The notes under the pieces: model-generated
What the model saw: the letters and a program-made list of their open reading frames with translations, nothing else
The model's database searches: none
Told to the model about the DNA's origin: nothing
Shown here: positions 384-46,795 of the stretch, piece after piece
Position numbering within the stretch: position 1 is the first letter of the stretch
How the letters are laid out: the number at the start of each line of letters is the position of its first letter
Translations under genes and position numbers: made by a program
DNA from: Candidatus Omnitrophota bacterium
Lineage (GTDB): Bacteria > Omnitrophota > Gorgyraeia > JABMRG01
NCBI GenBank assembly: GCA_030593065.1
Contig: JAUVHV010000002.1
Coordinates: forward strand, 104,098-168,097
Length of the DNA stretch: 64,000 bases
Reading direction: 5' to 3'

Positions 384-1250
384 TTATATGCCTGAGGAAT
401 CTATAATCTCAGGCACAAGGCGCTCCCACCCTATCGGCATTATATGAACACCTCGGCAGAGCCCCTTAAGCTCGTTAATCATCCTAACAGCTATCTCAAT
501 CGATTTCTTCTGCTTATCTGAAGCGCTCTCTACCTCTTTTATTAACTTAGCGGGTACATATATACCCGCTACATTTTCGTTCATATACCTTGCCATTTTT
601 CCGGACTTAAGCAGTATAATACCCGCTATAATTGGAATATTATATTGTGTAACTTTAGTAATAAACTCTTTAAATCTTATTATATCAAATACACCCTGTG
701 TCTGGAAAAATTGTACCCCGCAAGCTATCTTCTTCTCCATCTTTATGAGCTCCGGTTCCAATGGGTCTGCACAGGGATTTACTACCGCTCCAACGCAGAA
801 TTCCGGTTTGCCTTTAAGCTTATTGCCTGAACTGTCTTTACCTTGCTGTAAAGTCTTTATAATCTCTAACAATTGTATGGAATCGAGATCGAATACCGGT
901 TTTGCCTGCGGATGATCTCCTTTCAAAGGATGATCCCCGGTCAAAGCCAGAATATTTTCTATGCCAAGACAGGCAGCTGAGAGAATATCTGATTGGAGCG
1001 CAAGCCTGTTTCTGTCACGGCATGTTATCTGGAAAATAGGATCTATGCCCATCTGTTTAAGAAGATAAGAACCTGCCAGAGACCCCAATCTCATAACAGC
1101 GCTCTGAAGGTCTGTAACATTAATCGCGTCCACTTTACCGATAAGCGGCTTTGCCGTATCAAGCATCTTTGTTATATCGGTTCCCTTCGGAGGGCCCACT
1201 TCGCTTGTTACTATGAACTTATTTGATCTTATAGCTTTTTTCAAATCCAT
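384..1250 (-). CDS. metF: 5,10-methylenetetrahydrofolate reductase (MetF-type)
   Basis: 288 aa with MTHFR TIM-barrel motifs (TSEVGPPKG near the N-terminus; DAINVTD). Co-located with an MTHFR C-terminal-domain protein, folD, fchA and fhs. Confidence 0.85.
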   Translation of the reverse strand: MDLKKAIRSNKFIVTSEVGPPKGTDITKMLDTAKPLIGKVDAINVTDLQSAVMRLGSLAGSYLLKQMGIDPIFQITCRDRNRLALQSDILSAACLGIENILALTGDHPLKGDHPQAKPVFDLDSIQLLEIIKTLQQGKDSSGNKLKGKPEFCVGAVVNPCADPLEPELIKMEKKIACGVQFFQTQGVFDIIRFKEFITKVTQYNIPIIAGIILLKSGKMARYMNENVAGIYVPAKLIKEVESASDKQKKSIEIAVRMINELKGLCRGVHIMPIGWERLVPEIIDSSGI

Positions 1251-1294
1251 TACGCCTGATCCCTTTTTTAAATACTATAATCTGATAAAATAAA

Positions 1295-1939
1295 CTACAA
1301 AATAATCTTCTGCGGCTTAAGTTGTTTTGAATAATCGAGCGGCTTATAGATCTTTCTCATATTGTCCAAATCCCCTGACTCTTTCAAGCTTTTATATATT
1401 AATATCCAGCCGCAATCTTTCTCTTTATCGACCTCACATTTCTCGTTCTTTGAACCACCGCATGGGCCATTGAGCAGGCCTTTCGAACAGACAGTCAAGG
1501 AGCATATTGTGCCTGTCCTGTCAATAATGCAATCACCACAAAGTATACATTTCTGTGTAAAATGGCCTGCGCGCTCTACCTCACCGAGAAACAGCGTCTC
1601 AAGCGCGGGTAAAACCCTTTCTGCCTTGGTGCCATCTTTTATAACCTGCGCACCGTCACCACAGGCTAAGACCAGTACTGCATCTGTCTGTTTGAACGTC
1701 TCCTTATTCTTATGAAAAAGCTGTTTTACCTTAACCAGGTGGCATGCAGGGTCAAGTATCGCCTTGCCTGTAATCTTTAAACCTTCCTTTCGCAGATCGC
1801 TCTCCATCTCATCAACCTGATCCTCACCTCCTGTTTTACAGACAGTCGCGCATTGAGCACATCCTATAAGAAATACTGTTTTGTTTCCTTTAAGTGAATT
1901 AAAAATCTGCTTACGCGATCTCTTCTCTGTTATTATCAT
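1295..1939 (-). CDS. metV: Methylene-THF reductase C-terminal-domain protein (MetV-like zinc-ribbon / FeS small subunit)
   Basis: 214 aa, Cys-rich (CAQCATVC, CGDC, CxxC clusters). Lies immediately upstream of metF, as in acetogen metVF pairs. Confidence 0.7.
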   Translation of the reverse strand: MIITEKRSRKQIFNSLKGNKTVFLIGCAQCATVCKTGGEDQVDEMESDLRKEGLKITGKAILDPACHLVKVKQLFHKNKETFKQTDAVLVLACGDGAQVIKDGTKAERVLPALETLFLGEVERAGHFTQKCILCGDCIIDRTGTICSLTVCSKGLLNGPCGGSKNEKCEVDKEKDCGWILIYKSLKESGDLDNMRKIYKPLDYSKQLKPQKIIL

Positions 1940-2802
1940 CTTACACCTTTCTGTTTCTGAAAAAGCTCAACACAGTTGCGCATCAATATAGTAGTAGTAA
2001 GCGGCCCAACGCCACCAGGCACAGGCGTAATATAAGATGCTCTCTCACTTGCCTTATCAAACTCTACATCACCTACAATCTTACCGTCGACCCTGTTAAT
2101 CCCTATATCTATTACAACGGCGTGTTCTTTTATCCATTCTCCTTTAATAATCTTTGGCTTTCCCACGGCAACGATAAGCACCTCCGCACGGCTTATATGT
2201 TCTATTAGGTTGCCTTTCTCACTGGTTGCAACATGGCATACAGTAACTGTCGCGAATTTATCCAAAAGAAGCATTGCGAGAGGTTTGCCAACTATACCGC
2301 TATGGCCTATTATGACTGCCTCTTTGCCATATAGATCAATACCACTAAGATTTATAAGCTCCATCGCGGCCGATGCTGTAGGCGGTACCACTTTGTAAGC
2401 GTTAAGCAGCAGCTTTCCCTTATTCTCAGGGCTGATACCCTCTACATCTTTATCCGATGATATAAATGACGTTATTTTTATAATATCAAACCCCTCGGGT
2501 AAAGGGGACTGCAGTATAATCCCATTAACACTTTTGTCCTTATTCAACTGAGTTATCTTCTCTATAAGATCCTGCTCTGAAATGCAGCCGGCAAGTTTAA
2601 CAAGCTCATAGTCCATATTAATGGTATTGGCGATTCTTTTCTGTGAATTAGTATAAACTGAAAAAGCGCCCCCCTCACCTATCTGCAAAGCTATCAACCT
2701 CGGGACAGAGCCGATTGAATGCTTTAAAAATTTTATCTTGTCTTTCAACTTGTGCTTTATTTCATCAGCTTTTTTACCGCCATCAAGTATTATTGCACCC
2801 AT
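1936..2802 (-). CDS. folD: Bifunctional methylene-THF dehydrogenase / methenyl-THF cyclohydrolase FolD (start probably the internal MGAIILDGG)
   Basis: Motifs GHSGIVGKPLAMLL and PVPGGVGPLTTTILMRN. ORF-track start 2841, but the FolD-typical N-terminus begins at M14 (2802), which removes the overlap with fchA. Confidence 0.9.
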   Translation of the reverse strand: MGAIILDGGKKADEIKHKLKDKIKFLKHSIGSVPRLIALQIGEGGAFSVYTNSQKRIANTINMDYELVKLAGCISEQDLIEKITQLNKDKSVNGIILQSPLPEGFDIIKITSFISSDKDVEGISPENKGKLLLNAYKVVPPTASAAMELINLSGIDLYGKEAVIIGHSGIVGKPLAMLLLDKFATVTVCHVATSEKGNLIEHISRAEVLIVAVGKPKIIKGEWIKEHAVVIDIGINRVDGKIVGDVEFDKASERASYITPVPGGVGPLTTTILMRNCVELFQKQKGVR

Positions 2803-2803
2803 C

Positions 2804-3415
2804 TTATGTATGCATCCTTTCCCGAGCTTTAGATAAAACATGCGTCTTAAGCTTCTTCATTTCACGGTGAAGGGCCCTGTACCTTTCTGTGTTATTGATA
2901 ACATATTTCTTGTCTCTTACACGTTCTAAGTTAATATTGATATTTGCCAGGGCTGATTCAAACGCGGCATCAAGTGTATATACTGCTACAATCACATCTG
3001 ATAATATATTTTTATTTCCGACATATGCCAGTTCAAGCGCGACTAGAGTTACTTTGTAAGCATAATTACAGACATTAGATGGCGGCGTTATGGCTCTTTT
3101 TAGAGCTGGCTGCTGACTAATAATATTATCCTTATATTTTTTAAGCGCACTTGACAAATTTTCATACGCCTTTATATCTTTATCAATAAGGTCTGTCAGC
3201 TTTTTTCTTATGTTTTCGGATTTTTTCAATGCCTTTTGAGACCTCTCTTTATATCCATTAAAACCTTTTCCAGCTAAGGTAAAATTAGCTACCATGCTTA
3301 AAAGTCCGCAACCTAATACTCCTAACAGGGCGGATGTACTTCCTCCGCCGGGAATAGGTGTCTTCGCGGCCAGTTGATCCGCATAATACCTCATACTCTT
3401 ATCTATAAATTTCAT
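2804..3415 (-). CDS. fchA: Methenyl-THF cyclohydrolase / formimidoyl-THF cyclodeaminase family protein (FchA-like)
   Basis: 203 aa with the PIPGGGSTSALLGVLG motif of the cyclodeaminase/cyclohydrolase family. Positioned between fhs and folD. Confidence 0.8.
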   Translation of the reverse strand: MKFIDKSMRYYADQLAAKTPIPGGGSTSALLGVLGCGLLSMVANFTLAGKGFNGYKERSQKALKKSENIRKKLTDLIDKDIKAYENLSSALKKYKDNIISQQPALKRAITPPSNVCNYAYKVTLVALELAYVGNKNILSDVIVAVYTLDAAFESALANININLERVRDKKYVINNTERYRALHREMKKLKTHVLSKARERMHT

Positions 3416-3435
3416 AATATTTTCTCCTTACATTC

Positions 3436-5043
3436 CTAAAACAACCCTTTAATCTTACCATGGTTATCAGCAGTAATGTTACATGCTGCCGGTTTTTTAG
3501 GCAGCCCCGGTAAAAGCAGTATGTCACCGCAGACAGGAACAATAAAACCTGCGCCTGAAAATATCCTTATCTGGTGTATATTCAATTTCCATTCCTCAGG
3601 CCTGCCTTTCAAAAGGTGGTTATCAGATAAAGAAAACTGTGTCTTAGCAATATTGACAGCAAGCCTGTTCAAGCCAAGATCCTCTATAACCTTGAGGTCT
3701 TTCTTTGCCTGCAGACTAAAATTTACCCCTTTCCCACCGTATATTCTGGTAGATATAAGCTCTATCTTGCCCTTTATACTTAATTCTTCATTATAGAGAA
3801 GCTTAAACCCGCATTCGCCTTTTTTAAGCTGGCGCATGCATCCTTCTGCCAACTCTATCGCACCGCAGCCTCCTCTAGCAACAGCATCCGATATATAGCT
3901 CTCCACCCCAAGCTCCTGGCAACAGGCCTTTATCTGTTTAAGAGCCTTAGGTGGATCATTGGGAAATTTGTTTATCGCAACTATGGGTTCTATACCGAAA
4001 CACCTTATTATATTGATATGCTTCTTAAGATTAGGCAACCCATGCAGCCTCATAGCTCTACGAGAGACAACTATAACCGCCAGTTCCGGCCTTAATCTGC
4101 CTTGCCGGCATACAACATTAAAAAATTTCTCCGCACCGAGATCAGCGCCAAAACCACTTTCCGTTATTACATAATCCGCTAGTTTCAATCCCATAAGTAT
4201 TGACATAAGGCTATTTGCGCCATGGGCAATATTTGCGAAAGGCCCGCAATGAACAAAGGCGGGATTACCTTCTATCGTCTGGACAAGATTGGGCATAATA
4301 GCGTTAACCAGAAGCGCGCTCATTGAGCCAACAGCATTTAAGGTTTTAGGCGTAACAGGTTTCTTCTTCTTTGTAAAAGCAACTATCATACGTGAAAGCC
4401 TGTTTTGCAGATCCGCTATATTTCTGCTTAAGGCGAGGATTGCCATTGTTTCGGATGCGGCTATAATATCAAAGCCGCTCTCATAAGAAACTTTTTTGTC
4501 GATATTAAAACGTATCTTCCGAAGTGTCCTGTCACTTATATCTATGGTTCGCCGCAATAGTATATTGTTTATATCAATATTGAGCTTGTTATTAAAATAG
4601 ATACTGCTATCGAGCATGGCGCAAAGTAGGTTATTCGCTCCGGATACCGCATAACTATCACCTGTAAAATGGAGATTTATATCCTCCATTGGTATCACCT
4701 GGGAATATCCTCCGCCACAGGCGCCGCCCTTGATACCAAACATAGGCCCCAGTGAAGGTTCACGTAAACAGAGAAAAGCTTTTCTCTTCAATCTTCCGAA
4801 TGCCTGTGCCAGGCCTATAGCGGTCGAGGTCTTTCCTTCTCCATGTTTTGTAGGTGTTATAGAAGTGACAAGTATAAGTTTTCCATCGGGCTTGCTTTTT
4901 AATCTTGAGAGAAGTGAAGGGGATACTTTAGCTATATGGTTACCGTAAGGTATAAGTTCTTCATTCTTTATACCTGCGGATTTTGCTACCTCAGTTATCT
5001 GCTTCGGCTTTACACGCTGAGCTATCTCTATATCAGAAAGCAT
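3436..5043 (-). CDS. fhs: Formate--tetrahydrofolate ligase
   Basis: 535 aa; TPTKHGEGKTSTAIGL P-loop region; full-length FTHFS architecture. Confidence 0.92.
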   Translation of the reverse strand: MLSDIEIAQRVKPKQITEVAKSAGIKNEELIPYGNHIAKVSPSLLSRLKSKPDGKLILVTSITPTKHGEGKTSTAIGLAQAFGRLKRKAFLCLREPSLGPMFGIKGGACGGGYSQVIPMEDINLHFTGDSYAVSGANNLLCAMLDSSIYFNNKLNIDINNILLRRTIDISDRTLRKIRFNIDKKVSYESGFDIIAASETMAILALSRNIADLQNRLSRMIVAFTKKKKPVTPKTLNAVGSMSALLVNAIMPNLVQTIEGNPAFVHCGPFANIAHGANSLMSILMGLKLADYVITESGFGADLGAEKFFNVVCRQGRLRPELAVIVVSRRAMRLHGLPNLKKHINIIRCFGIEPIVAINKFPNDPPKALKQIKACCQELGVESYISDAVARGGCGAIELAEGCMRQLKKGECGFKLLYNEELSIKGKIELISTRIYGGKGVNFSLQAKKDLKVIEDLGLNRLAVNIAKTQFSLSDNHLLKGRPEEWKLNIHQIRIFSGAGFIVPVCGDILLLPGLPKKPAACNITADNHGKIKGLF

Positions 5044-5060
5044 ATTGTCATTACCTTATC

Positions 5061-5702
5061 TTATTTTACCCGAAAGCTGCGCCTGTGTATAGGCGAAAAT
5101 CCCTTTTCGATAATTGCGCTCATATGCTCTTTAGTAGCATAACCTTTATGGCGGTAAAAACCATACCCCGGAAAGATGCTATCATAAAACTGAAGCAACC
5201 GATCACGGGTAACCTTTGCAACTATTGAGGCGCATGCTATGGATAAACTTTTCTGATCACCATTGATAATAGTAGACTGCTTCGTATCAAACCGTAACCG
5301 CATATTTCCATCTATAAGTAAAAGGTCTGGCTGAGCACAGAGCTCAAGTACTGATCTCTCCATTGCGAGCATTGTGGCCTGATATATATTAATATCGTCA
5401 ACAACAGCCTCTGAGACTATCCCGATACCTATTATAGCCCTATCAAAAATTTCCTTATACGCGCGTCTTCTTGCAAAAGGAGTCAGTTTTTTAGAGTCAT
5501 CTATCCTGACCGAAAAATCATGCCGTTTAAGCACAATAGCGGAGGCAACAACCGGGCCCGCTAAAGGCCCTCTGCCGGCTTCATCAATACCAGCTATAGA
5601 CCTGTAACCCCGGCTTCTGGCAATATCTTCTTTGTGAAGCAGCCTATTTCTCTTTCTTTGAAATCGATCCAATCTTTTCTTCAACCGTTGTCTTTTTACC
5701 AA
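5061..5702 (-). CDS. rnhB: Ribonuclease HII
   Basis: [17 protein letters not shown] motif. The annotated start overlaps the rplS 3' end by 59 bp; the true start is uncertain. Confidence 0.85.
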
Positions 5703-6009
5703 CCTTTTTTCTCAAATAATAAAGTTTGGCACGCCTTACTTTTCCCCGCCTTGTTATCTCTACTTTGTCTACACTGGGTGCGTGAAGAGAGAATGTCCTT
5801 TCAACCCCTTCTCCATAAGAAACGCGCCTTACAGTAAAAGATTCCCTCACTCCGGAGCCTTTCTTTGATATAACTATTCCTTCAAATGCCTGAAGCCTCT
5901 GCTTCTCTTCTTCAATAATCCTTATAAATACCTTTACTGTATCACCCACTGAAAATTTAGGGGCGTCTTTCTTCATATATTTCGCTTCTGTTTCCTCGAT
6001 TTTATTCAT
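5644..6009 (-). CDS. rplS: 50S ribosomal protein L19
   Basis: 121 aa; [10 protein letters not shown]...[14 protein letters not shown] is typical of L19. Confidence 0.92.
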
Positions 6010-6082
6010 GCCGCTGTCTCCTTCCTATTATAATATCTGATCAATATTAGGTTCTCTTAAATTTGTAGTTATACAATTATAG

Positions 6083-6775
6083 CTATGCCTCTAACTGGCT
6101 TATATGTTTTATCAGATCAGGCCTCTGATCAATGGTCTTTAGAACAGACTCTTTTTTTCTCCAGGACTTTACAAGATTATGGTTACCTGAAATAAGCAGT
6201 TCCGGAACCTTTTTACCTCTGTAATCCGCGGGGCGTGTATATTGTGGATATTCCAATAACCCGTCGGTAAAGCTTTCATCTATATTAGACTTTTCATGGC
6301 CCAGTACACCGGGTAAAAGCCTCACCACGCTGTCTATCAACACCATAGCAGGTAATTCACCCCCGGTCAATACATAATCTCCGATTGATATCTCCTGGTC
6401 TATAAAATCCATAATCCTCTCATCTACGCCCTCATAATGTCCGCACACAAGTATAAGCCCCGCTGCTTTCGAAAGAGATAAACAGATGGAATGATTAAGC
6501 ATCTTCCCTTTTGGACTCATAAGTATTACCTTTGCGCGTGGCGATAACCTCTTTATACTGCTGAGCGCGTCAATAACAGGCTGGCACTGCAATACCATCC
6601 CCGGGCCCCCGCCAAAAGGCTTGTCATCTACCTTGTGGTGTTTATTGGCCGCAAAATCCCGTATATTATGTGTGCGTATCTTTACTTTCGCGAATCGCTG
6701 AGCACGCTCAATAATCGATTCTGAAGTTAATGCCTTAAACATACCTGGAAAAAGTGTCAATATATCTATATTCAT
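6083..6775 (-). CDS. trmD: tRNA (guanine37-N1)-methyltransferase
   Basis: 230 aa; begins MNIDILTLFPGMF, with the SPOUT knot region; adjacent to rpsP and rplS. Confidence 0.9.
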   Translation of the reverse strand: MNIDILTLFPGMFKALTSESIIERAQRFAKVKIRTHNIRDFAANKHHKVDDKPFGGGPGMVLQCQPVIDALSSIKRLSPRAKVILMSPKGKMLNHSICLSLSKAAGLILVCGHYEGVDERIMDFIDQEISIGDYVLTGGELPAMVLIDSVVRLLPGVLGHEKSNIDESFTDGLLEYPQYTRPADYRGKKVPELLISGNHNLVKSWRKKESVLKTIDQRPDLIKHISQLEA

Positions 6776-6813
6776 AGGATTATTACGTTATTGTGTTATA
6801 GCGCAACGGCCTG

Positions 6814-7047
6814 CTATGCTTTTGCCGCAATACTCTTTACTGTATCGCTCATCTGCGCACCGACACCTATCCAATAATTGACGCGCTCTTTGTCTATCTT
6901 GACAAAAGCAGGGTTCTTTGAGGGATCGTAAAAACCGAGTTCCTCTATAGCCCTCGCATTTCTGCTCCTACGCTTATCACAGACTATTATTTTAAAATGC
7001 GGTTTTCCCTTTGTTCCCATCTTTTTTAACCGTATCATTACTGCCAT
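6814..7047 (-). CDS. rpsP: 30S ribosomal protein S16
   Basis: 77 aa; MAVMIRLKKMGTKGKPHFKIIV...YDPSKNP. Confidence 0.92.
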   Translation of the reverse strand: MAVMIRLKKMGTKGKPHFKIIVCDKRRSRNARAIEELGFYDPSKNPAFVKIDKERVNYWIGVGAQMSDTVKSIAAKA

Positions 7048-7109
7048 TGTATCATCTCCTTATGCTCCATGCCTGCCTGCCTGTAGGCAGGCATATAACG
7101 CATGATGGT

Positions 7110-8375
7110 TTAAGATTTTACCCTTTTGATTTTTGCTCCCAACAACGAAAGCTTCTTTTCCATGTCTTTATACCCCCTGTCAAGGTGATATATCCTTGAG
7201 ATAGTAGTCTTGCCTTTAGCAACCATACCTCCTATCACCAGAGCTGCTGATGCCCTGAGATCTGATGCCATTACTTCCGCTCCGCTTAAGTTCTTAGCGC
7301 CATGTACAATAGCGCTGTTTCCTTCAAGGCTTATCTGCGCACCCATCCTGTTAAGTTCTCCAACATGCATAAACCTCTCTGGATATATCTTCTCTGTAAT
7401 AATTGCTATACCTTTTGATACAGCCATAAGTGACATCATCTGTGCCTGTAAATCTGTAGGAAAACCAGGATATGGCAATGTAGTCAAAGCTATCGTCTTT
7501 AGTCTTCGATTGGCTCTTACTCTTATAGCTCCGTTAGGTTTTTTAGTAATCACTGCTCCTGCCTCAATAAGAATATCTATAAGGGCTCTCAGATGATTGA
7601 TATTAGCTCCCTTAATAGTAATATCTCCTTTTGTAGCGCAAGAGGCGATCATGTAAGTAGCCGCTTCTATCCGGTCAGGTATAATCTTATGTGTAGCTCC
7701 ATGCAGGCGCTTCACACCGTCAATCTCTATTGTATGAGTCTTATGGCCTTTGATCCTGGCACCCATCTTTATAAGAAATTCGGCTAAATCGATAATCTCC
7801 GGTTCACATGCAGCATACTCTATTATTGTTTTGCCTTTAGCCAGTGTTGCTGCCATCATAACATTTGCCGTAGCCAACACAGAAGAGCCAAAAGGCCCCC
7901 CTAGATATATTGTGTTGCCTTTCAATCCTTTTGTCTTTGCTATCAGATAACCGTGCTCAACCTTTATATCAGCTCCAAGTGCGTTCAGGCCTTTAGTATG
8001 TATGAATATCGGGCGTGGGCCTATTATACAGCCGCCTGGCAGTGATACTTTGGCATAGAGCTGCTTCGCAAGAAGGGGGCCAAGAATACATATAGAGGCG
8101 CGCATTGTACTTACATAATCATAAGCAGCGGTATTACCTGTATAACCGCCGGGATGTATTTCAAGAGTATCATTTAAAAAGCTTACCTTGACCCCAACTG
8201 TTCGCAATATTTTACACATAGTAAATACATCGCTAAGTTGAGGAACACCTTTAATAACAGATTTGCTTTCAGTAAGCAGGCATGCTGCTATTATTGGCAA
8301 TGCGGCATTTTTTGAGCCATCAATCCTAACCTGGCCTGATAATCGCGTAGGGCCTTCTATTATAAGTTTATCCAT
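7110..8375 (-). CDS. murA: UDP-N-acetylglucosamine 1-carboxyvinyltransferase
   Basis: 421 aa; MDKLIIEGPTRLSGQVRIDGSKNAALPI N-terminus; EPT fold. Confidence 0.92.
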   Translation of the reverse strand: MDKLIIEGPTRLSGQVRIDGSKNAALPIIAACLLTESKSVIKGVPQLSDVFTMCKILRTVGVKVSFLNDTLEIHPGGYTGNTAAYDYVSTMRASICILGPLLAKQLYAKVSLPGGCIIGPRPIFIHTKGLNALGADIKVEHGYLIAKTKGLKGNTIYLGGPFGSSVLATANVMMAATLAKGKTIIEYAACEPEIIDLAEFLIKMGARIKGHKTHTIEIDGVKRLHGATHKIIPDRIEAATYMIASCATKGDITIKGANINHLRALIDILIEAGAVITKKPNGAIRVRANRRLKTIALTTLPYPGFPTDLQAQMMSLMAVSKGIAIITEKIYPERFMHVGELNRMGAQISLEGNSAIVHGAKNLSGAEVMASDLRASAALVIGGMVAKGKTTISRIYHLDRGYKDMEKKLSLLGAKIKRVKS

Positions 8376-30916: not shown

Positions 30917-32836
30917 TTATGAGCTGACTGGAAGTTTCCTTCCGGCTTTATGTTCGTTTATGGTGTTTCGCAAGAGCCTGCAATAGAGGTCAAATCCTAC
31001 AGCGGCAATATATCCATGCTGTTGGGTCCCTAATATATTGCCGGCACCCCTTATCTGAAGGTCTTCCATAGCTATCTTAAAACCTGAACCCAGTTCTGTA
31101 AAACGTCCTACAGCCTTGAGCCTTCTCTTTGCGTCTCCTGCAAGCGGGTAATTCTTTGGCACCAGGCATATCGCGTAAGCTTTTATATTAAACCTGCCTA
31201 CCCTGCCTCTAAGCTGATAAAGATCTGCTAAACCAAACCTATCCGCGTGATTTATAATAATAGTATTTGCATTCGGTATATCTATACCTGATTCGATAAT
31301 AGTTGTAGAGACCAAGACATCTATTTCACCTTTTATAAACTGGAGCATTATCTTTTCAAGCTCTTTAGCCGGAATCTTACCGTGGGCAACAGAGATACGT
31401 ACACTCTCTCCCATAAGCGCCTTTAGTCCTAACACGATCTTCTCTATCCCCTTAATCCTATTATTCACAAAAAAGACCTGGCCTCGCCTTTTAAGCTCAC
31501 GCTCAATAGCTTCTTTAATCAGCTTATCGTTATATGAACTTATAATAGTCTTGATAGGAAGCCTGTCAAGGGGTGGTGTGTTGATTGCGGACATATCTCT
31601 TGCACCGGTAAGCGACATGTATAGCGTACGCGGTATAGGTGTAGCTGTCATTGTAAGGACATCTATAAGAAGCCTGATCTTTTTCAATTTCTCTTTTGCC
31701 TTTACGCCAAAACGCTGTTCCTCATCTATAATTACGAGCCCGAGATCCTTAAATACTATATCATCCGACAAAAGCCTGTGTGTTCCTATTACAATATCGA
31801 CAGAACCCTCTTTCAACCCCTTCAAAACCTCTTTCTGTTCAGATTTTGTCTTAAAACGTGAAAGCATCTGTATATTTACAGGAAACTCCTTCATTCTTTC
31901 GCAAAATGTATTATAATGCTGTTCCGCCAATATAGTAGTAGGAACTAATATACCAACCTGCTTGTTATCCATTACAGCCTTGAATGCGGACCTTAAAGCA
32001 ACTTCCGTCTTACCATAACCTACGTCACCACATAAGAGCCTATCCATAGGCTTTGGCTTTTCCATATCAGAGATTACGTCAGAAACGGCCTTTGCCTGAT
32101 CGATCGTATCTCTATAAGGAAAACTTTCTTCCAGTTTATATTGCCAATCAGTATTTTTGGAGAAAGCAAAACCCTTGAGTTTCATTCGATCTGCCTGCAT
32201 CTGAAGCAGTTCCATTGCATAAGAGGCTGCTATCTTCTTGGTCTTCTGTTTTAATCTTTTCCAGGAACCTGTTCCCAGCTTGCTCAGTCTTGGAACACAC
32301 TTATAAAAACTTAAATATTTTTGTATAAGATTTATCTCCCCGACAGGCAAATACAACTTATCTCTATCCGCGTACTCGATTAGAATATAATCTTTCTCAT
32401 GGCCACTCTTTTCCTTTATTTTCTTTATGCCTTTGTATATACCTATACCATAATCAATATGTACGACTAAATCGCTAATCATTATATCAACAAAGTTATC
32501 TATAGGCACCTCTTCTCCCATACCGTGAAATATAGCGGGCTTGGCAGAAGAGTGTAATGTTTTTCTTGGAAGTATTATTACCATCTGGTGGACAGAAGTA
32601 ATCTCAGAAGTGACCAGGCTAAAAGATCGTATAGAATGAACCTTATCCTGAAAAAGCTCTAATCGCACAGGAGACTCAAAGCCGCTGGGAAAGATATCGA
32701 TAATCCCTCCCCTGTGCGCAAAGTCTCCTTCCTGCGCTACAAAATCTGTTATCTTATAACCCAGCAGGATTAAATCTTTAAGAAGCGGTTCTTTCTCCTG
32801 GTTTTGATTGGTATAAAGCTTGGCCGATTTAAACAT
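30917..32836 (-). CDS. mfd: Transcription-repair coupling factor (Mfd) homolog; short form lacking the N-terminal UvrB-homology region (D1a/D2 side) and the C-terminal D7
   Basis: 639 aa. Contains RGGIIDIFP...RLELF (UvrB-like motif), a CarD/TRCF RNAP-interaction domain (VVHIDYGIGIYKG...KLYLPVGEINL), SF2 helicase motifs (GDVGYGKTEVALR; DEEQRFGV; TATPIPRTL; QLRGRVGR) and a TRG region. Only 45 bp separate it from argS. Confidence 0.75.
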   Translation of the reverse strand: MFKSAKLYTNQNQEKEPLLKDLILLGYKITDFVAQEGDFAHRGGIIDIFPSGFESPVRLELFQDKVHSIRSFSLVTSEITSVHQMVIILPRKTLHSSAKPAIFHGMGEEVPIDNFVDIMISDLVVHIDYGIGIYKGIKKIKEKSGHEKDYILIEYADRDKLYLPVGEINLIQKYLSFYKCVPRLSKLGTGSWKRLKQKTKKIAASYAMELLQMQADRMKLKGFAFSKNTDWQYKLEESFPYRDTIDQAKAVSDVISDMEKPKPMDRLLCGDVGYGKTEVALRSAFKAVMDNKQVGILVPTTILAEQHYNTFCERMKEFPVNIQMLSRFKTKSEQKEVLKGLKEGSVDIVIGTHRLLSDDIVFKDLGLVIIDEEQRFGVKAKEKLKKIRLLIDVLTMTATPIPRTLYMSLTGARDMSAINTPPLDRLPIKTIISSYNDKLIKEAIERELKRRGQVFFVNNRIKGIEKIVLGLKALMGESVRISVAHGKIPAKELEKIMLQFIKGEIDVLVSTTIIESGIDIPNANTIIINHADRFGLADLYQLRGRVGRFNIKAYAICLVPKNYPLAGDAKRRLKAVGRFTELGSGFKIAMEDLQIRGAGNILGTQQHGYIAAVGFDLYCRLLRNTINEHKAGRKLPVSS

Positions 32837-35290: not shown

Positions 35291-37186
35291 TTACTCATAG
35301 CTAATCGCGATCTGCAATGTTTCTGTATACTTATTAATACTTTTTGGAAATCGTGGAAATGGCGCTGCGCTTACTACGCTCTGCACGCCCAGTTCAAAGA
35401 GGTTATGATCCTTGCCTTTATAAATTTTTGGGGTTGATAGGAGCCTGCCGTAACGGTCTATTTCAAAAGATATTGAGACTTCACCATATACAGGTATATT
35501 TGGCCTTCTTTTCTCAACCTCTTCATTTATCATAGATACTATGAGGTTATAGTATTCATCCGGAGCCATATTCTTTGTATCAATCTCCTTGCTTTTGTTC
35601 ATTTTACCAAAAAAATCCTTTACAGCTATATCCTGTGCTACCTTATCAACTGTAAGCAGGTCTGCAGGCTCTTCCCCACTGATAATATGCGGAGTAAGAA
35701 ATATAACCAACTCTGTTTTCTCAGGATTTGTATTGTCACCGCTGCCTATAGTCCTGGACCGAAATAGATTCCCGATCAGAGGAATATCAGCAAGCCCTGG
35801 AACTTCTCTCACGCTCTCTCTTACATTCTCTTCTATAAGGCCCCCTATCAATACCGTTGCCCCGGATTTTACCATGACAGTTGTCTCTGTTGTGGTAGTC
35901 TTTACTATCGGTATAGTATTCTTGCTACTCTCTATGGTAAAGTCGCCTAATTTTGAACTTACCTCTGGTTTTATCTTCATAGTAACAAAATCATGGTCAT
36001 TAATAGTCGGTTTTACAATAAGTTTTATACCTAAATCGATAAAGGTTACATTTTCCGCTTCAATATTTCCTGTTCCACCACTGCCCTGGCTTATTGTACG
36101 CGTGGCATAGGGCTGGTTTGTACCTACCAGGATACTTGCCTCTTCATTATTAATGACAGCGATTCTTGGTGAAGAGAGCAGTTTTGTCTCTCCATACTCT
36201 TTTAATACCTGAATAACGGCCTGATATCCTTCAGTACTCAAGTTGCCTATCTGCAGGGCTCCACCAGCACCGGTTGCTGTGGTAGTTGGCATGATATTAG
36301 TCTGATCCGAATATTTTAAGCTCACACCAAACGTTGCTATGTTATGCAGGGTATGGTTCATTTTTACAAATACCGCGTCCCAGTTAATACCTGTCCTGTA
36401 ATCATCGTTCAATGTGATCTGTAATATCTTTGCCTCTATAATCACTTCTTTATGTTTTTCATCAAACGCGGCTATAACCTGATCAAATAGAGGTATCCTT
36501 TCCACAAGATCTGTTACAATTACTTTATTCGTACGCTCATCAATACGCAGGTTTCCGACACCATCTGTTAGCATCTCGCTCAGCCTGTCTTTCATCTCAT
36601 CTACTCTTGCATACTGCAGGGAATAGACCCTTGTCTCAAGTGGGATATCGAGGCCTTTGATTATCTTTTCCATTTCAGCTACAACTTTTGGAATATCCAT
36701 AAGTACTATTGTATCAGACGTGTTATCCGCGACAACCCTTCCTATATTAGTCTTAAATTGGGAAATTGCCTTTGATACATCCTCTGCTGCAGCGTACTGA
36801 AGTTTTATAGACTTTACGATGCGCCTGTCCTCATACTTTTTGCCGTAGATTAATTCATAATCACGCTCTGTCATAACATATATAATATTGTCGCGTTTTT
36901 CAAATGCCAGGCCATTTGCCGCTATAATTATCTCAAAGGCCGCCCATGTATCCACATCTTTTAAAAAGAGGGTTACCTTGCCTGTCACGTTCTTTCCCGC
37001 GATAATGTTGAGATTGCCTCTCATAGATAATAACCTGAAAACATCCAGTATATCCATACCTTTGATGTCGAGTGAAAGTTTCTCTATAGGCTCAGGCGCA
37101 ATTGAAACGCTTGCTTGAGCAAAGAGATAACTTTGTGAAGTAACTATTAATGATAAGATCAATATTCCCATTGATATCTTTTTCAT
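35291..37186 (-). CDS. Secretin (GspD/PilQ family) with a C-terminal TonB-C-like domain
   Basis: 631 aa; signal peptide, N0/N1-like domains, secretin core (VLIGGLIEENVRESVREVPGLADIPLIGNLFRSRT), then a C-terminal roughly 90 aa GEVSISFEIDRYGRLLSTPKIYKGKDHNLFELGVQSVVSAAPFPRFP resembling TonB_C. Confidence 0.8.
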   Translation of the reverse strand: MKKISMGILILSLIVTSQSYLFAQASVSIAPEPIEKLSLDIKGMDILDVFRLLSMRGNLNIIAGKNVTGKVTLFLKDVDTWAAFEIIIAANGLAFEKRDNIIYVMTERDYELIYGKKYEDRRIVKSIKLQYAAAEDVSKAISQFKTNIGRVVADNTSDTIVLMDIPKVVAEMEKIIKGLDIPLETRVYSLQYARVDEMKDRLSEMLTDGVGNLRIDERTNKVIVTDLVERIPLFDQVIAAFDEKHKEVIIEAKILQITLNDDYRTGINWDAVFVKMNHTLHNIATFGVSLKYSDQTNIMPTTTATGAGGALQIGNLSTEGYQAVIQVLKEYGETKLLSSPRIAVINNEEASILVGTNQPYATRTISQGSGGTGNIEAENVTFIDLGIKLIVKPTINDHDFVTMKIKPEVSSKLGDFTIESSKNTIPIVKTTTTETTVMVKSGATVLIGGLIEENVRESVREVPGLADIPLIGNLFRSRTIGSGDNTNPEKTELVIFLTPHIISGEEPADLLTVDKVAQDIAVKDFFGKMNKSKEIDTKNMAPDEYYNLIVSMINEEVEKRRPNIPVYGEVSISFEIDRYGRLLSTPKIYKGKDHNLFELGVQSVVSAAPFPRFPKSINKYTETLQIAISYE

Positions 37187-37230
37187 TATTTTAAACCCCC
37201 GATTTTAACTTTTTATTTTTATATATTTTA

Positions 37231-37944
37231 TTATAATGAGAGCGTTACGGTCTCATCATTACACTCAAGTATAACTCTGCCGTTTAGTATGTCCTTTACT
37301 CGTATGTTATCAATCATATCACCCTTTTTAAGAAAGAGTGTCTGCCCATTTCTCTTATCCTCTATTATTACCTGTGGTTGGTTTCCAGGTATTATACCAA
37401 CGAGGCTTAAGCCTTTCACTAAATCACGAAGGCCGGGCCCCTCTATCGCCTTTACCTTACCGTTACTTCTGGCAGGCGGCGCGAATATAGCTTTTTTATT
37501 AAGCAGTTTCTGGTAGTCTTCAAATGAAGATGCGGGCTTCTCATTATTAGAGGCCTCTTTTTTTTCAGTAAGCGCCTTCTCCGCCTCAAATTCTCCGGGC
37601 TCTTCTGTCTCTGAAAATGATTTTATAAGAAGCTTTAAATTCTCTACCTCTTGATCTTCTTTGTAAATTAAGGCGGTAAATATAAAATATCCTGCTAAGA
37701 AAACCAGAACAATAAATGCCCCAAGAATCAGATAATTTACATTAAAAGCGGGCTTTAATTTTTGCTTTTTTTTATGGGTTTTCTCCACCGGCGCTTCATC
37801 AGAACTGGGCGCAACCTGTCCGGCCTTCTGCGAGATTGCTTGCGCCACAGGCGGAACAGCCTTTGTCCGGGCAGGAACAACAGAATTCTGTTTTCCTTTT
37901 ATCAGATGAAGTAATTTTTCTTCGGGCGAAAACTCATTTACCAT
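37231..37944 (-). CDS. Bitopic membrane protein, GspB/PilP-like candidate secretin-assembly factor
   Basis: 237 aa; cytoplasmic Lys-rich N-terminus, one TM (ILGAFIVLVFLAGYFIF), periplasmic C-terminal beta-domain (IIEDKRNGQTLFLKKGDMIDNIRVKDILNGRVILE). Sits between the ExeA-like ATPase and the secretin. Confidence 0.4.
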   Translation of the reverse strand: MVNEFSPEEKLLHLIKGKQNSVVPARTKAVPPVAQAISQKAGQVAPSSDEAPVEKTHKKKQKLKPAFNVNYLILGAFIVLVFLAGYFIFTALIYKEDQEVENLKLLIKSFSETEEPGEFEAEKALTEKKEASNNEKPASSFEDYQKLLNKKAIFAPPARSNGKVKAIEGPGLRDLVKGLSLVGIIPGNQPQVIIEDKRNGQTLFLKKGDMIDNIRVKDILNGRVILECNDETVTLSL

Positions 37945-37945
37945 A

Positions 37946-38770
37946 TCACCTTACCTCGCGTGCCATTATCTCTTCAATCAGGCTCTCATCCACAATTTTT
38001 CTTTCCCGCATAATAAGCATCTCAAGCGCATCATGACAAAGCATTGATATCTTTCTCGGATACCCCTGAGTATGCTCATATATATGCCTTATAGCGTTAT
38101 CAGTAAATAACTGCTCATCCTTCGTATGGCCTGCTTGTCTTAATCTAAATTCTATAAGCGCCTTGGTCTCATTCTCATCAAGCGGATTAATAATATATTT
38201 AAGATTTACCCTGTCCATAAAATTTCTTATTCTTCGTATCTTCGGTAACAACTCTATCTGTGAAAGTATGACAAGTTGTAACAGCTTATACTGGTTAGTT
38301 TCATAATTCAAAAGAGTCCTTAATATCTCAATCTGTGTGGGGGTAAGTTTCTGGCCTTCATCTATAAGAAGGATTATAGTTTTATTCTCATCAACCCCTT
38401 TTTGGAATAAATATTTTTCCAGTGCGTCCTTATAATCAAGAGTTGACCGAAATGCCGGAGTCACGCCAAACATCTTACCTAAGCTTGAAATAAACTGAAA
38501 TTCCGTCTTGTAACTGGGATCAAGTACCATGTGGAATATAAAATCAGGCTCATCCTTAAAAATTTGAACTAACATCCTGCTTAAAGTTGTCTTTCCCGTC
38601 CCTACATCCCCTAATATTACATTCAGCCCCCTGCGCAGACGTATTGCTATCTCTAATCTTTTTAATGCCGCGTTATGTGAGAAAGATGGATAAAAAAATT
38701 GCGGGTCCGGGCTTGTTGAAAACGGCTCTGATTTCAGGTATAATGCTTCATAATAACTCATCTTCACCAA
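37946..38770 (-). CDS. AAA ATPase, ExeA/GspA-like
   Basis: 274 aa; Walker A VILGDVGTGKTT; ExeA-family architecture without a periplasmic PG-binding extension. Confidence 0.7.
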   Translation of the reverse strand: MVKMSYYEALYLKSEPFSTSPDPQFFYPSFSHNAALKRLEIAIRLRRGLNVILGDVGTGKTTLSRMLVQIFKDEPDFIFHMVLDPSYKTEFQFISSLGKMFGVTPAFRSTLDYKDALEKYLFQKGVDENKTIILLIDEGQKLTPTQIEILRTLLNYETNQYKLLQLVILSQIELLPKIRRIRNFMDRVNLKYIINPLDENETKALIEFRLRQAGHTKDEQLFTDNAIRHIYEHTQGYPRKISMLCHDALEMLIMRERKIVDESLIEEIMAREVR

Positions 38771-38844
38771 TCCTAAGGTTTACAAGTTACCTCGTCGCTT
38801 TGCAATAACTTTATTACGATTTTCAGTGAGGCCTGATTGAAATT

Positions 38845-39069
38845 TCATACTGCAAGCTTCTTTTTTATATGTTCCAGAGATTTACCTTCTTTTCTTAAAT
38901 TTCTAATATGCTTAAGCATGTCAACTGTTGAATCATCAAAAAACCTAAAATTCGTCTCTATACCTCTGCTTATCTCTTTTATAAGTTTTATCTTTAGATA
39001 GAACTTTAACGTGTCCACAGAATAGCCTGTTACTTGCGCAAGATCTCTTATTAAATATATATTCCTCAT
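38845..39069 (-). CDS. MerR-family HTH transcriptional regulator (short); ORF track gives 38845..39132, internal Met start more likely
   Basis: MRNIYLIRDLAQVTGYSVDTLKFY is a MerR-type HTH; embedded in the secretion-system cluster. Confidence 0.5.
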   Translation of the reverse strand: MRNIYLIRDLAQVTGYSVDTLKFYLKIKLIKEISRGIETNFRFFDDSTVDMLKHIRNLRKEGKSLEHIKKKLAV

Positions 39070-39242
39070 TCTTATCAGCCTACGTTTTCTGCAACTATTA
39101 ATATCGCGTTCATTAAAGGTGGATATTATCACTCCATGGGTAAGGAGCCCACCTTCTCCCTACTCATAGAGTTAGTTTATAATGTTTTTGCACTATTGTC
39201 AACTTGTGAGTATAAAAAAATTGGAAAAATAACAGATATTGC

Positions 39243-39258
39243 TCCCTATGCAGGGAGT
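39243..39258 (-). terminator. Small GC hairpin (CTCCCT-ATGC-AGGGAG) downstream of the pilO-like gene
   Basis: Perfect 6-bp stem seen directly; a U-rich tract follows on the minus strand after a short gap. Possible attenuator or terminator ahead of the MerR gene. Confidence 0.25.
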
Positions 39259-39276
39259 GAGAGCAGGTGATTGAAA

Positions 39277-39810
39277 CTACTTCATAACCAACCTAGATAT
39301 AAGCATAGAAGCCCTTATAGCTACGCCTTGTTGGCTACTTCTTGTACTTATATTCAGCTTTTCAATCTTGAGTATTTGTGAAGAATTTTTAATATCATAT
39401 ATAAACCTCATAAGAGAGTCCATATCAGATTCGGTATCTATCTTAACAGCAAACCTGCTATAGTAATCTTTCTGTTCTGGAGGGTTTGGCCTCATGCTTG
39501 TAATCTTAAGGCCTGAACGGCTAGCAATCTTCTCAATCTCATCAAGTATTAATGTTATGTCCTGTTCATTACTCCCTTTTGACTTAAGCTTTTTCTCATA
39601 GGTTGAATATTCCGCATCCACCTTCTGCTTCTCCTTTATAAGAGAGAGGGACTTCTTCAATTTTACTTTGATAAGCTCTATCCTGCTATTAACACTCCTC
39701 CATCGCATAAAGAGTGGTTCTACTAAAAGATTATAGCATAGCCCTATAATAATTACCGCAATTACGCTAACAAGTATTCTCTTTTCTCTCTTTGAAAGTT
39801 TTTCCAGCAT
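39277..39810 (-). CDS. PilO/GspM-like inner-membrane platform protein
   Basis: 177 aa; N-terminal TM, coiled-coil, C-terminal ferredoxin-like domain; follows the pilM-pilN fusion. Confidence 0.55.
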   Translation of the reverse strand: MLEKLSKREKRILVSVIAVIIIGLCYNLLVEPLFMRWRSVNSRIELIKVKLKKSLSLIKEKQKVDAEYSTYEKKLKSKGSNEQDITLILDEIEKIASRSGLKITSMRPNPPEQKDYYSRFAVKIDTESDMDSLMRFIYDIKNSSQILKIEKLNISTRSSQQGVAIRASMLISRLVMK

Positions 39811-41283
39811 CTAATCTAATAAGCCTTTCTTAAAATTACATCTTATCTGAAAATCTATCACAGCAGATCCTCTTGTACGCTTTTCAGTAACAGATCGCGT
39901 CTGCACATTACTAAAACTTACTGAGCTCTCAAGCAGAGTTACTAACTTAAATACATCCGAAATTTTACGCGCCATGCCGCGAAATCGAACAACTCTTGAT
40001 GGGTCATCATAATTAAAATCGAGCAAAAAGATATTCTCCGGTATAAGGTTATGCAGGCTATATATAACATGCAGTGATGAGGCTTCTCCTGAAAGCTGCT
40101 CTTTGATACTCCGCAACTTTTTAAATTTTATCTCTACCCGGCTGGCTGCCGGCTCTATCTGCCCATACATCAATTCAAGCTCATTCAAAAGCTTCTCTTC
40201 CTGGTATATCTTTAAGCCTATTAATGCAAGTACAACTGAAAAGATAAGAAATGAAGTAATTGTAATGCCTATAATTTTCCTGATTGCAACATTTTGGCTC
40301 TGCTTTTTTTTCTCATCCTGCGAAATAAGGTTGATACCTTCCCCGGCAAACGGGCCTCCACACACTGCGCACATCGAAACATCCTGGGGTATCCCTGTTT
40401 CAGCTAATGCTTCGTCCGCAAGAAAGGCTCCGTGCAGCACATTTACCGCTTTGCAGGGAGTCTCGACAGCAATCGCGAAAAATTCCGCGAAACTTTTAAT
40501 AACAGAATTAGCGCCTGTTACAACAAACTCAGATATATCTCTTGCTTCCGTAGTCTTCTCTTTAAGATACGCGGCTATTGAACGCTTTATCTCATCTACA
40601 AGCCTTGTTTTTGATGAATCGTCTTGCCACTCCTGCTCCAATATATCCAGCGCGCCTATAGAAATAGATCTACTAAAACTGAGTTTTCCACCGGAAACTA
40701 TTATTATCTCAGTATCATCACTATCTATATCTATGAGGCAAATGTTCTTCTCTTTTGTTAAAGTTACTCCGGCTGTATCCAGCCACCCGATTATAACCTC
40801 TGAACTCAATCTTATCCGCTTAAGCCTGTTACCTGATATACCTAATATATGGTTAATCCGTACAATCTCGTTTTTTGGGGAAACAACCAGCATAACCCTG
40901 GAATAGCCTTCCGCGTCCCTACCCAATACCTCGTAATCTGAGATAATCTCATCCTGGGAATATGGCGTCTGCTTTGTGATCTCAAATGATACCATCTTCT
41001 CTATCTCTGACTTATCCAGAGCAGGAAGGCGTATATACCTTACCATTGTCCGCTCTCTGGAGATGATAAAAGTAACAGAATCGAGTTTTATACCGTTACT
41101 GCTTGCGGTATCATTTAGCAATTTAGCTATCTCTTCCTCAGATAATCCGAATACAGGTTCAATTAAAAGTTTAGTTACAACAGGCCCATTAGGGGTAATC
41201 TCTGACTGCAGGATCTTGAGATATTTTTTATCTACCTCTATATACAGATTCGGTTTTTTAGATAGGATAAACGGAAGATTCAA
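39811..41283 (-). CDS. Type IV pilus assembly PilM-PilN fusion protein
   Basis: 490 aa; actin-like PilM region (ICLIDIDSDDTEIIIVSGGKLSFSRSISIGALDIL), then a TM segment (IIGITITSFLIFSVVLALIGL) and a PilN-like periplasmic domain. Confidence 0.7.
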   Translation of the reverse strand: MNLPFILSKKPNLYIEVDKKYLKILQSEITPNGPVVTKLLIEPVFGLSEEEIAKLLNDTASSNGIKLDSVTFIISRERTMVRYIRLPALDKSEIEKMVSFEITKQTPYSQDEIISDYEVLGRDAEGYSRVMLVVSPKNEIVRINHILGISGNRLKRIRLSSEVIIGWLDTAGVTLTKEKNICLIDIDSDDTEIIIVSGGKLSFSRSISIGALDILEQEWQDDSSKTRLVDEIKRSIAAYLKEKTTEARDISEFVVTGANSVIKSFAEFFAIAVETPCKAVNVLHGAFLADEALAETGIPQDVSMCAVCGGPFAGEGINLISQDEKKKQSQNVAIRKIIGITITSFLIFSVVLALIGLKIYQEEKLLNELELMYGQIEPAASRVEIKFKKLRSIKEQLSGEASSLHVIYSLHNLIPENIFLLDFNYDDPSRVVRFRGMARKISDVFKLVTLLESSVSFSNVQTRSVTEKRTRGSAVIDFQIRCNFKKGLLD

Positions 41284-41289
41284 TTTCAG

Positions 41290-42426
41290 TTACTCCTGAT
41301 ACCAATATTTAATTAAAGGCGGCCTATTCTTATTTTTAAAGCTATATACCGCTTCCAATTTTATCTTTACTTTTTTTACCTGGGCCGATACTATTGCGCG
41401 ATATGTATCTGAAGTTACGCTAAACTGTGGATCAAAGCCTGAAATAAGATCCCTTATCCTGCTGTATTCATCGATTGTTATACCATAGATATTAGCATAC
41501 CATTCGGCATCTTGCAAATTCTTTATTTCAACAAGCCCTTCTTTTCCTCTGTCAATTATAGTTGAACCGAAAGAAAACCACGCGTCATCACTTGTACCGA
41601 TAAGGCCATCTTCACCAGACCTGAAATTCGCTATCTTAGATGGGAGATTAGTAAAAACAGGGCCTATCAGGGCACTCAGAACCGGTTCGCTCGCGCTATT
41701 TATATTTATTTTTCCACTACCAAAAATTGTAATATACGGTTTAATCATATTCAGAATCCGCGGCGCAATACCCCTTACAAGCAAAAGTTCATATATCGTA
41801 TCGAAATCTGAATTCTTACAATCATATCCCTGTAAAAGGCCTTGATAGTAGGTGTTTTCAGCGCCATAGAGAAGCCTGTCTTCAGAAGAGGCGACATCAT
41901 TATCCATATCACGCCAATCTATTATAGCACCCGCTATATCCATGGCGTCATCTTCATCAATATCAAAATATAATAAGAGGTTGCTTATTGTCTCGTCACT
42001 AGCTGTATTAATATTTATTTTTGACTCTTCATCCATGAACCCATATAGCGTAACAGGAATATCGTCACTTTTTTTGGGTAAAGGATATTCATACCCCACT
42101 GTATAGCTTCCATCTCCAAAACGATGCCTGTCAAACAACTTCGTATTATTTGCCCAGGGTTGGCTTAAAGCATCCACGCCTATCGAAAGGTTATTTTTGT
42201 ATTCAAGCCTTTTCTCTGCCAATACGCGTATAATACCGGCACGGGCTATAAAATAGGCCTTTAGTTTATCAATATCATAAGATGTAAGCTTAAGTGAAAT
42301 AGCTGACTGCCTTCCTATGCTTACTGCAAATACAGCAAGTATAGCGACCATCCAAAGAGTGGTTATAAGTATTAGTCCTTTTTTGGTATTAGGCCCGCAA
42401 TTACCGGTTATCGGCTCGTAATTCAT
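41290..42426 (-). CDS. GspK-like minor pseudopilin (T2SS K / PilX-like)
   Basis: 378 aa; N-terminal hydrophobic helix; KININTASDETISNLL HhH-like motif typical of GspK. Confidence 0.6.
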   Translation of the reverse strand: MNYEPITGNCGPNTKKGLILITTLWMVAILAVFAVSIGRQSAISLKLTSYDIDKLKAYFIARAGIIRVLAEKRLEYKNNLSIGVDALSQPWANNTKLFDRHRFGDGSYTVGYEYPLPKKSDDIPVTLYGFMDEESKININTASDETISNLLLYFDIDEDDAMDIAGAIIDWRDMDNDVASSEDRLLYGAENTYYQGLLQGYDCKNSDFDTIYELLLVRGIAPRILNMIKPYITIFGSGKININSASEPVLSALIGPVFTNLPSKIANFRSGEDGLIGTSDDAWFSFGSTIIDRGKEGLVEIKNLQDAEWYANIYGITIDEYSRIRDLISGFDPQFSVTSDTYRAIVSAQVKKVKIKLEAVYSFKNKNRPPLIKYWYQE

Positions 42427-42438
42427 AATTACTTATTT

Positions 42439-44043: not shown

Positions 44044-44108
44044 TAAAATAGCTGTTTCATAACTATTTTATGGCTGTATGAAAATTTTGCAAATTTCTAT
44101 ACTATAAG

Positions 44109-44531: not shown

Positions 44532-44539
44532 TTCTCCTC

Positions 44540-45547: not shown

Positions 45548-45575
45548 TTTTTACTCCTCCGTTAATAAGCATTAT

Positions 45576-46793: not shown

Positions 46794-46795
46794 GT

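Follow-up and report, generated by a model that had tools for sequence, protein, structure and literature searches.

Does an intact set of genes leading from formate to methyl-tetrahydrofolate (methyl-THF) mark an acetogen when the genes for acetyl-CoA synthesis are missing from the place where relatives carry them? The question is raised by five minus-strand genes, fhs, fchA, folD, metV and metF, located at the left edge of a 64,000-nt stretch of Candidatus Omnitrophota DNA (hereafter the window). An earlier note on this DNA had read them as the methyl branch of the Wood-Ljungdahl pathway and leaned towards acetogenesis. The formate-to-methyl-THF gene set is intact in this Omnitrophota genome and most likely supplies one-carbon (C1) units for biosynthesis, not for acetyl-CoA synthesis, a reading to which we give a probability of roughly 0.58. 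C1 supply is favoured over acetogenesis because the acs block is missing at the syntenic slot: the carbonyl-branch genes that lie between metF and panB in relatives are replaced, in the window and in related lineages, by a GAF/HD-GYP gene, which argues against the earlier lean.

The metF-panB interval across Omnitrophota

Only 383 nt downstream of metF are shown by the window; a 15.9-kb Logan contig of identical sequence (L001) adds 10 kb on that side, for a total of 74 kb. Past metF, L001 carries in order a HAMP-GAF-HD-GYP signalling gene, panB, panE, genes for a 274-aa pterin-binding methyltransferase and a 364-aa AAA_26/DRTGG protein, apbE, a gene for a membrane (Na+/H+-)pyrophosphatase and mnmA. 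The signalling gene is complete at L001:6002-7438 and encodes 478 aa with the Pfam domains HAMP, GAF_2 and HD_5; its product matches an NCBIfam cyclic di-GMP (c-di-GMP) phosphodiesterase-like model at 1e-42. Pfam searches of the 74 kb, including 40 further open reading frames (ORFs) of the window, detected no genes for carbon monoxide dehydrogenase/acetyl-CoA synthase (CODH/ACS), Hdr/Mvh, Rnf, formate dehydrogenase (FDH), glycine cleavage or glycine reductase, with neither a Prismane-family (CODH) nor an FDH family member, no gcv, lpd, grd or sda gene, and no corrinoid protein, substrate-specific methyltransferase or activator. When the window and L001 were searched by tblastn with Omnitrophota AcsB, AcsC, AcsD, AcsE, RACo and CooC, only a paralogue of AcsE was recovered. 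Both approaches thus confirmed the earlier remark that the window is devoid of CODH/ACS, Hdr/Mvh and Rnf genes.

The closest named homologues of MetV and of the pterin-binding protein belong to Candidatus Omnitrophota. The previous suggestion of a C1 metabolism in an uncultivated lineage holds as far as the lineage is concerned, but the pathway had already been described there: Wood-Ljungdahl pathways are known in the Omnitrophota classes Gorgyraia and Velamenicoccia, with a methyl branch that is complete (Fhs, FolD, MetF) without FDH, and hence formate-fed, and a carbonyl branch that occurs with or without AcsA/CooS (Seymour et al. 2023, PMC10066038). The window arrangement recurs in L003, L011, L093, L005 and L007 (MetV identity of 87, 64, 64, 63 and 52%, respectively), five relatives that come from independent NCBI, ENA, JGI and Logan assemblies, the accessions GCA_028716165.1 and GCA_043797125.1 post-dating the study of Seymour et al. 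In this clade the order is rho-rpmE-prfA-prmC-murA-rpsP-trmD-rplS-rnhB-fhs-fchA-folD-metV-metF-[GAF/HD-GYP]-panB-panE-Pter2-DRTGG-(apbE)-hppA, where Pter2 is the pterin-binding methyltransferase. The GAF/HD-GYP gene is kept in its slot in all five relatives and was found in none of the acs-bearing loci compared; no acs remnants were detected in the 26-nt gaps of five window-clade lineages.

One acs-bearing counterpart, L008, was found via relatives of the pterin-binding protein and has a full acsB-acsC-RACo-cooC-acsD-acsE block directly upstream of panB-panE-Pter2-DRTGG. Genome contigs were further scanned with a two-part probe (MetV and the AcsB core), and 80 loci were retained, all of which matched the AcsB half; the window genome and its close relatives fall outside the species representatives scanned, as a 100% MetV match would have ranked first. 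Mapping of the 80 loci by tblastn placed metF just upstream of the acsB region in at least 17 acs-bearing Omnitrophota loci, and on long contigs the order was fhs-fchA-folD-metF-(cooS)-acsB-acsC-RACo-cooC-acsD-acsE-panB-panE-Pter2-DRTGG. The murA-rpsP-trmD-rplS-rnhB flank that precedes fhs is the same in the acs-bearing L022, L023 and L026 as in the window clade. According to Pfam, acsB directly follows metF in L022, while cooS, a cooF-like ferredoxin gene and a pyridine-nucleotide oxidoreductase gene lie between metF and acsB in L064 (Gorgyraia family JABMSB01).

These data define one collinear locus in three states, with CODH and ACS (state A), with ACS only (state B) or free of acs (state C, that of the window). 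In state C, the GAF/HD-GYP gene takes the place of the acs block and metV lies between folD and metF. The loci in states A and B gave no metV match, even at a threshold of E = 1e-3, yet MetV may be unlinked rather than absent in these genomes: on two other Omnitrophota contigs, L094 (10001-11656) and L095 (10001-11647), metV stands apart from any metF, in the conserved order pheST...fusA-like-metV-nifU-5-formyl-THF cyclo-ligase-rny-ymdB. Besides an adjacent MetF, MetV may have another role or partner.

The same loci offered some further observations. In L022 (16673-19000), acsE and panB are separated by an ORF of 775 aa to which Pfam assigns no family. In two Nitrospirota clusters (L054:185-2010 and L065:683-3058), panB directly follows (metV-)metF and precedes cooC-acsE-acsD-acsC-acsB, so that the link between metF and panB reaches beyond Omnitrophota. 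Eight metagenome-assembled genomes (MAGs) of the binchicken set (L013, L015, L017, L021, L025, L027, L067 and L068) are titled "uncultured Planctomycetia bacterium" but carry the Omnitrophota-type locus; these titles are probably taxonomic mislabels, and L015, L021, L027 and L067 pair with Omnitrophota MAGs in the tree described next.

A neighbour-joining tree of Fhs, FolD and MetF (1097 columns, 100 bootstraps) recovered Omnitrophota as monophyletic with a bootstrap of 100 and, within them, the acs-free clade as monophyletic, again with 100, while the acs-bearing set formed a clade with a bootstrap of only 31. Parsimony would favour a loss of acs in the window clade, since ACS and a linked MetV both occur in the outgroup phyla; this falls short of a demonstration.

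The five genes and their products

All five identities proposed earlier were borne out, with Pfam E-values from 1e-32 to 1e-210 (Table 1). At the more stringent level of NCBIfam equivalogs, Fhs passes with 683 bits against a cut-off of 652 (NF010030), while FchA, above its Pfam cut-off, scores 121 bits where the FchA equivalog demands 275. The longest folD ORF spans 1936-2841 and encodes 301 aa counted from its first ATG, but the true start is probably Met14, since homologues have 288 aa and family alignments begin at this residue. With this start, fchA and folD are separated by a single nucleotide; 20 nt separate fhs from fchA and 44 nt metV from metF, while the metV start and the folD stop overlap by 4 nt. 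The GC content of the five genes is that of the remaining window. The tight, co-oriented packing described in the earlier note was therefore recovered, but not the boundaries of a separate operon. The neighbours are equally close, with the end of rnhB 17 nt upstream of fhs and the next gene beginning 26 nt past metF, and scans for promoters and terminators gave no signal above shuffle background around the five genes, so that these do not demonstrably form an operon of their own. No riboswitch was found at the locus in an Rfam search.

Table 1. Features of the locus and of its immediate flanks (window coordinates)
Feature	Position	Strand	Remarks
HAMP-GAF-HD-GYP signalling gene, 5' part	1-357	minus	cut by window edge
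metF, catalytic subunit of methylene-THF reductase	384-1250	minus	288 aa; MTHFR PF02219 4e-38
metV, Fe-S/Zn subunit of type II methylene-THF reductase	1295-1939	minus	214 aa; PF12225/DUF5981 "MTHFR C-terminal" 3e-32
folD, methylene-THF dehydrogenase	1936-2802	minus	288 aa from Met14 (probable start); THF_DHG_CYH_C PF02882 3e-59, THF_DHG_CYH PF00763 2e-25
fchA, methenyl-THF cyclohydrolase	2804-3415	minus	203 aa; FTCD_C PF04961 9e-44
fhs, formate-tetrahydrofolate ligase	3436-5043	minus	535 aa; FTHFS PF01268 6e-210
Upstream flank rnhB, rplS, trmD, rpsP, murA	5061-8375	minus	synteny with relatives

Four types of methylene-THF reductase (MTHFR) have been defined by Öppinger et al. (PMC8760232). FMN and Fe-S clusters are found in purified type II enzymes, which in vitro accept electrons from reduced ferredoxin but not from NAD(P)H; their physiological donor is still debated (PMC8760232). 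On the basis of gene organisation, the window pair is classified as type II: metV (PF12225) adjoins metF on the same strand, and neither rnfC2 (type III) nor hdrCBA-mvhD (type IV) was found near metVF in the window or L001. The best NCBIfam match of MetF is the MTHFR half of a YitJ-type model (PRK08645, 244 bits), while the E. coli-type model TIGR00676 gives 74 bits for a cut-off of 294 and another E. coli-type equivalog model 27 for 382. MetF is 61-68% identical to the acsB-adjacent MetF of other Omnitrophota. In MetV, all 13 cysteines (C27, C30, C34, C66, C93, C131, C134, C137, C146, C151, C160, C168 and C176), among them a CxxCxxC...C motif, show a conservation of at least 97% among 128 homologues that span several phyla. 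The earlier view that this reductase is of the acetogen type and not of the E. coli type was thus upheld by the low TIGR00676 score and by the cysteine-rich PF12225 partner. A sequence search of the PDB with MetV gave no match. MetV belongs to a widespread family: at E<=1e-3, it matches 1330 clusters defined at 50% identity, and some MetV-MetF fusions of ca. 540 aa occur. Separately, residue 147 of the window MetV (1498-1500), which follows Cys146, is a Ser at a position occupied by Pro in 98% of the 128 homologues, this Pro being that of the CP in a ferredoxin-like cluster motif.

FolD most closely matches E. coli FolD in the PDB (1b0a, 6e-62), to which it aligns without gaps around the YxxxK motif. 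Both of its domains are present and Tyr50 and Gln98 are kept, but the residues expected of a bifunctional enzyme (Lys54 in E. coli and Lys56 in human; Asp121 and Asp125, respectively) were not found: two independent alignments place a Gln at Lys54, with a Lys shifted to position 55, and a Glu at Asp121. When Lys56 of the human enzyme is substituted, cyclohydrolase activity is lost but dehydrogenase activity is kept; a separate cyclohydrolase partners monofunctional dehydrogenases, for instance that of Acetobacterium woodii. Gln54 and Glu121 are common to the FolDs that adjoin FchA in Omnitrophota (12 out of 12), while two Actinomycetota FolDs whose clusters have no FchA retain Lys and Asp. The Lys of YxxxK is catalytic for both activities and shuttles the proton in the cyclohydrolase reaction (PMC3368264). 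Because this lysine is replaced, the window FolD is probably a dehydrogenase only that leaves the cyclohydrolase step to FchA, and the Lys-to-Gln change fits the retention of fchA, for which it provides a testable explanation. FchA itself evolves fast in the window's clade, with 34% identity to its L007 counterpart versus 57% for Fhs.

The pterin-binding methyltransferase sits four genes downstream of metF, and its gene and the DRTGG gene occupy L001:9257-11177, ca. 3.3-5.2 kb past the left edge of the window. Its best match among solved structures is the methylcorrinoid:THF methyltransferase of a Desulfitobacterium hafniense O-demethylase (4o0q, 1e-41), followed by AcsE structures (1e-38) and, more distantly, the pterin module of MetH. 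An assignment to AcsE, for which it scores 253 bits against the 259 of NF005719, was considered and dropped as L008 encodes a genuine AcsE alongside a second copy; the L001 protein is 46% identical to this second copy versus 30% to L008 AcsE. Sequence comparison thus identifies it as a paralogue of AcsE, and neither as AcsE nor as a dihydropteroate synthase, the latter being a frequent mis-annotation. In L001 and its relatives, the protein has 265-277 aa and is translationally coupled to panE. E. coli Pta has an N-terminal domain similar to the 364-aa AAA_26/DRTGG protein that follows. As a pair, the two also occur in L003, L005, L007, L008, L009, L011, L023 and L064; this pair is kept in Omnitrophota with or without acs genes and, in L008, stands beside the genuine AcsE.

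The remaining 59 kb upstream carry housekeeping genes (rnhB, rplS, trmD, rpsP, murA, prmC, prfA, rho, coaE, glgA, polA, tsaD, gatCAB and others), TonB-ExbBD and a cluster for type II secretion or pili. The secretion/type IV pilus-like cluster (35291-48496, minus strand) comprises a secretin, PilM/N/O-like and GspK-like proteins, pseudopilins, GspF and GspE, and has a LacI-family regulator gene inside it (44540-45547). Essentially all genes of the window (1-64000) are on the minus strand, with an exception at 51453-53693. All 2-kb bins have a negative GC skew, which places the window inside a single replichore. Two other minus-strand products are unusual in their architecture: a single 849-aa ORF (53656-56205) fuses a radical SAM domain with Memo and AMMECR1, AmmeMemoRadiSam components that are usually separate proteins, and an Mfd-like protein (30917-32836) has UvrB-interaction, CarD/TRCF RID and helicase domains in just 639 aa, the canonical Mfd having ca. 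1150.

Likely use of the module

If the module supplies and interconverts C1 units, Fhs would activate formate with ATP, FchA would close 10-formyl-THF to methenyl-THF, FolD, probably as a dehydrogenase only, would reduce the latter to methylene-THF, and the type II MetVF would convert methylene-THF to methyl-THF, with MetV, the Fe-S subunit, taking up electrons from a low-potential carrier such as reduced ferredoxin and not from NAD(P)H. Formyl-THF would be used for purines, methylene-THF for thymidylate and in the adjacent panB/panE route to pantoate, and methyl-THF probably for methionine, possibly via the pterin-binding methyltransferase. The link to ferredoxin would be provided by an Rnf or Nqr complex encoded elsewhere, of which the downstream apbE is a hint. 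The gene identities, the conserved cofactor residues and the locus structure as compared with relatives come directly from the data; what we infer in this scheme is the source of the electrons, the direction in which the module runs, the restriction of FolD to dehydrogenase activity and the genome-wide absence of acs. A published Omnitrophota genome that is 94% complete, DG02-5-26, has fhs, metF, metH, gcvPT and glyA and no acs KEGG orthologues in its stored table, which indicates that genomes with the methyl branch only are already present in published data.

Several points weigh against C1 supply for biosynthesis. The genomic view is limited to 74 kb of a 204-kb contig, so that acs would be absent only by extrapolation from this region, and with a bootstrap of 31% for the acs-bearing set, acs may have been lost or gained. 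Catabolic Wood-Ljungdahl flux typically goes with a ferredoxin-type MetVF and a dedicated FchA; that both have been kept over a deep divergence might point beyond anabolic demand. Moreover, with metV lying away from metF in L094 and L095, linkage is no proof of presence or absence. A full or partial Wood-Ljungdahl pathway, in which acs genes elsewhere in the genome would let methyl-THF pass to the corrinoid iron-sulfur protein and ACS for formate- and CO-dependent acetyl-CoA synthesis or acetogenesis, would profit from that partial view and is in keeping with the gene order and type II MetVF shared with clostridial acetogen clusters (PMC8760232) and with the common occurrence of the formate-fed pathway in Gorgyraia and Velamenicoccia. 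It is nonetheless unlikely, as acs immediately follows metF in every acs-bearing Omnitrophota locus with metF that was recovered (at least 17), the five window-clade lineages have neither acs nor a remnant of it there, and the nearby pterin methyltransferase is not AcsE.

The affinity of this methyltransferase to an O-demethylase component bears rather on oxidative C1 catabolism, where methyl groups delivered by a corrinoid system, or C1 units of serine or glycine, would be oxidised via MetVF, FolD and FchA and a reversed Fhs would yield ATP and formate. All steps of the module are reversible in principle, but the corrinoid protein, substrate-specific methyltransferase and activator were not found in the 74 kb and the same pterin/DRTGG pair occurs in acs-bearing relatives, which makes such catabolism improbable. 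In a reductive glycine pathway, Fhs, FchA and FolD, its entry steps, would provide methylene-THF for a glycine cleavage system running in reverse, with glycine reductase or a serine route as the next stage. Some Omnitrophota do encode gcvPT and glyA, but the 74 kb lack the specific genes of this pathway (gcv, lpd, grd, sda), and MetVF would have no role in it and yet is translationally coupled to folD; we regard this use as very improbable. Supply of C1 units for biosynthesis thus remains the preferred reading.

A more elaborate history would have a deep lineage delete the carbonyl branch while keeping a catabolic-type methyl branch, pull metV into the cluster, gain a c-di-GMP-type sensor as neighbour and turn the module to a new role. 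We hold this scenario to be unlikely; if true, formate scavenged from a host or community could be the main source of C1 and methyl groups for a reduced, host-dependent cell, or the module could be reversed, with the AcsE-paralogue methyltransferase as methyl entry, and yield ATP and formate. The five-gene set itself is textbook, and the pathway had been documented in this phylum before. What the three locus states offer is a simple positional marker for separating likely acetogens from non-acetogens among Omnitrophota MAGs, along with the caution that methyl-branch genes or a MetVF pair alone are insufficient to infer acetogenesis.

Comparison with known systems

Among the closest known gene arrangements is that of Clostridium ljungdahlii and C. 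autoethanogenum, in which the same five genes occur in the same order, fhs-fchA-folD-metV-metF (PMC8760232, PMC8515935). In both the window and the clostridial cluster, MetV (Fe-S/Zn) adjoins MetF, no rnfC2 or hdrCBA-mvhD is involved and a separate FchA gene lies beside folD. The clostridial segment, however, is embedded among genes for CODH/ACS, acsCDE, cooC, lpdA and gcvH, whereas that of the window lies between housekeeping genes and GAF/HD-GYP-panB-panE, with no acs in the 74 kb. Compared with the Wood-Ljungdahl loci of Omnitrophota (for example L064 and L022), the window has collinear flanks, the Lys-to-Gln change in FolD and the lack of FDH in common, but the window clade has metV and no acs block while these loci have acs and no metV in the cluster.

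Among characterised reductases, the MetF and MetV core is common to the window, to type III (RnfC2-MetVF of Acetobacterium woodii) and to type IV (HdrCBA-MvhD-MetVF of Moorella thermoacetica), but the 59 kb upstream and the 10 kb downstream of the window pair contain neither an RnfC-like gene nor genes for Hdr or MvhD. With the E. coli-type (type I) MetF, the window protein shares the MTHFR fold (PF02219), but it has an Fe-S partner subunit and, as seen above, equivalog scores far below the type I cut-offs.

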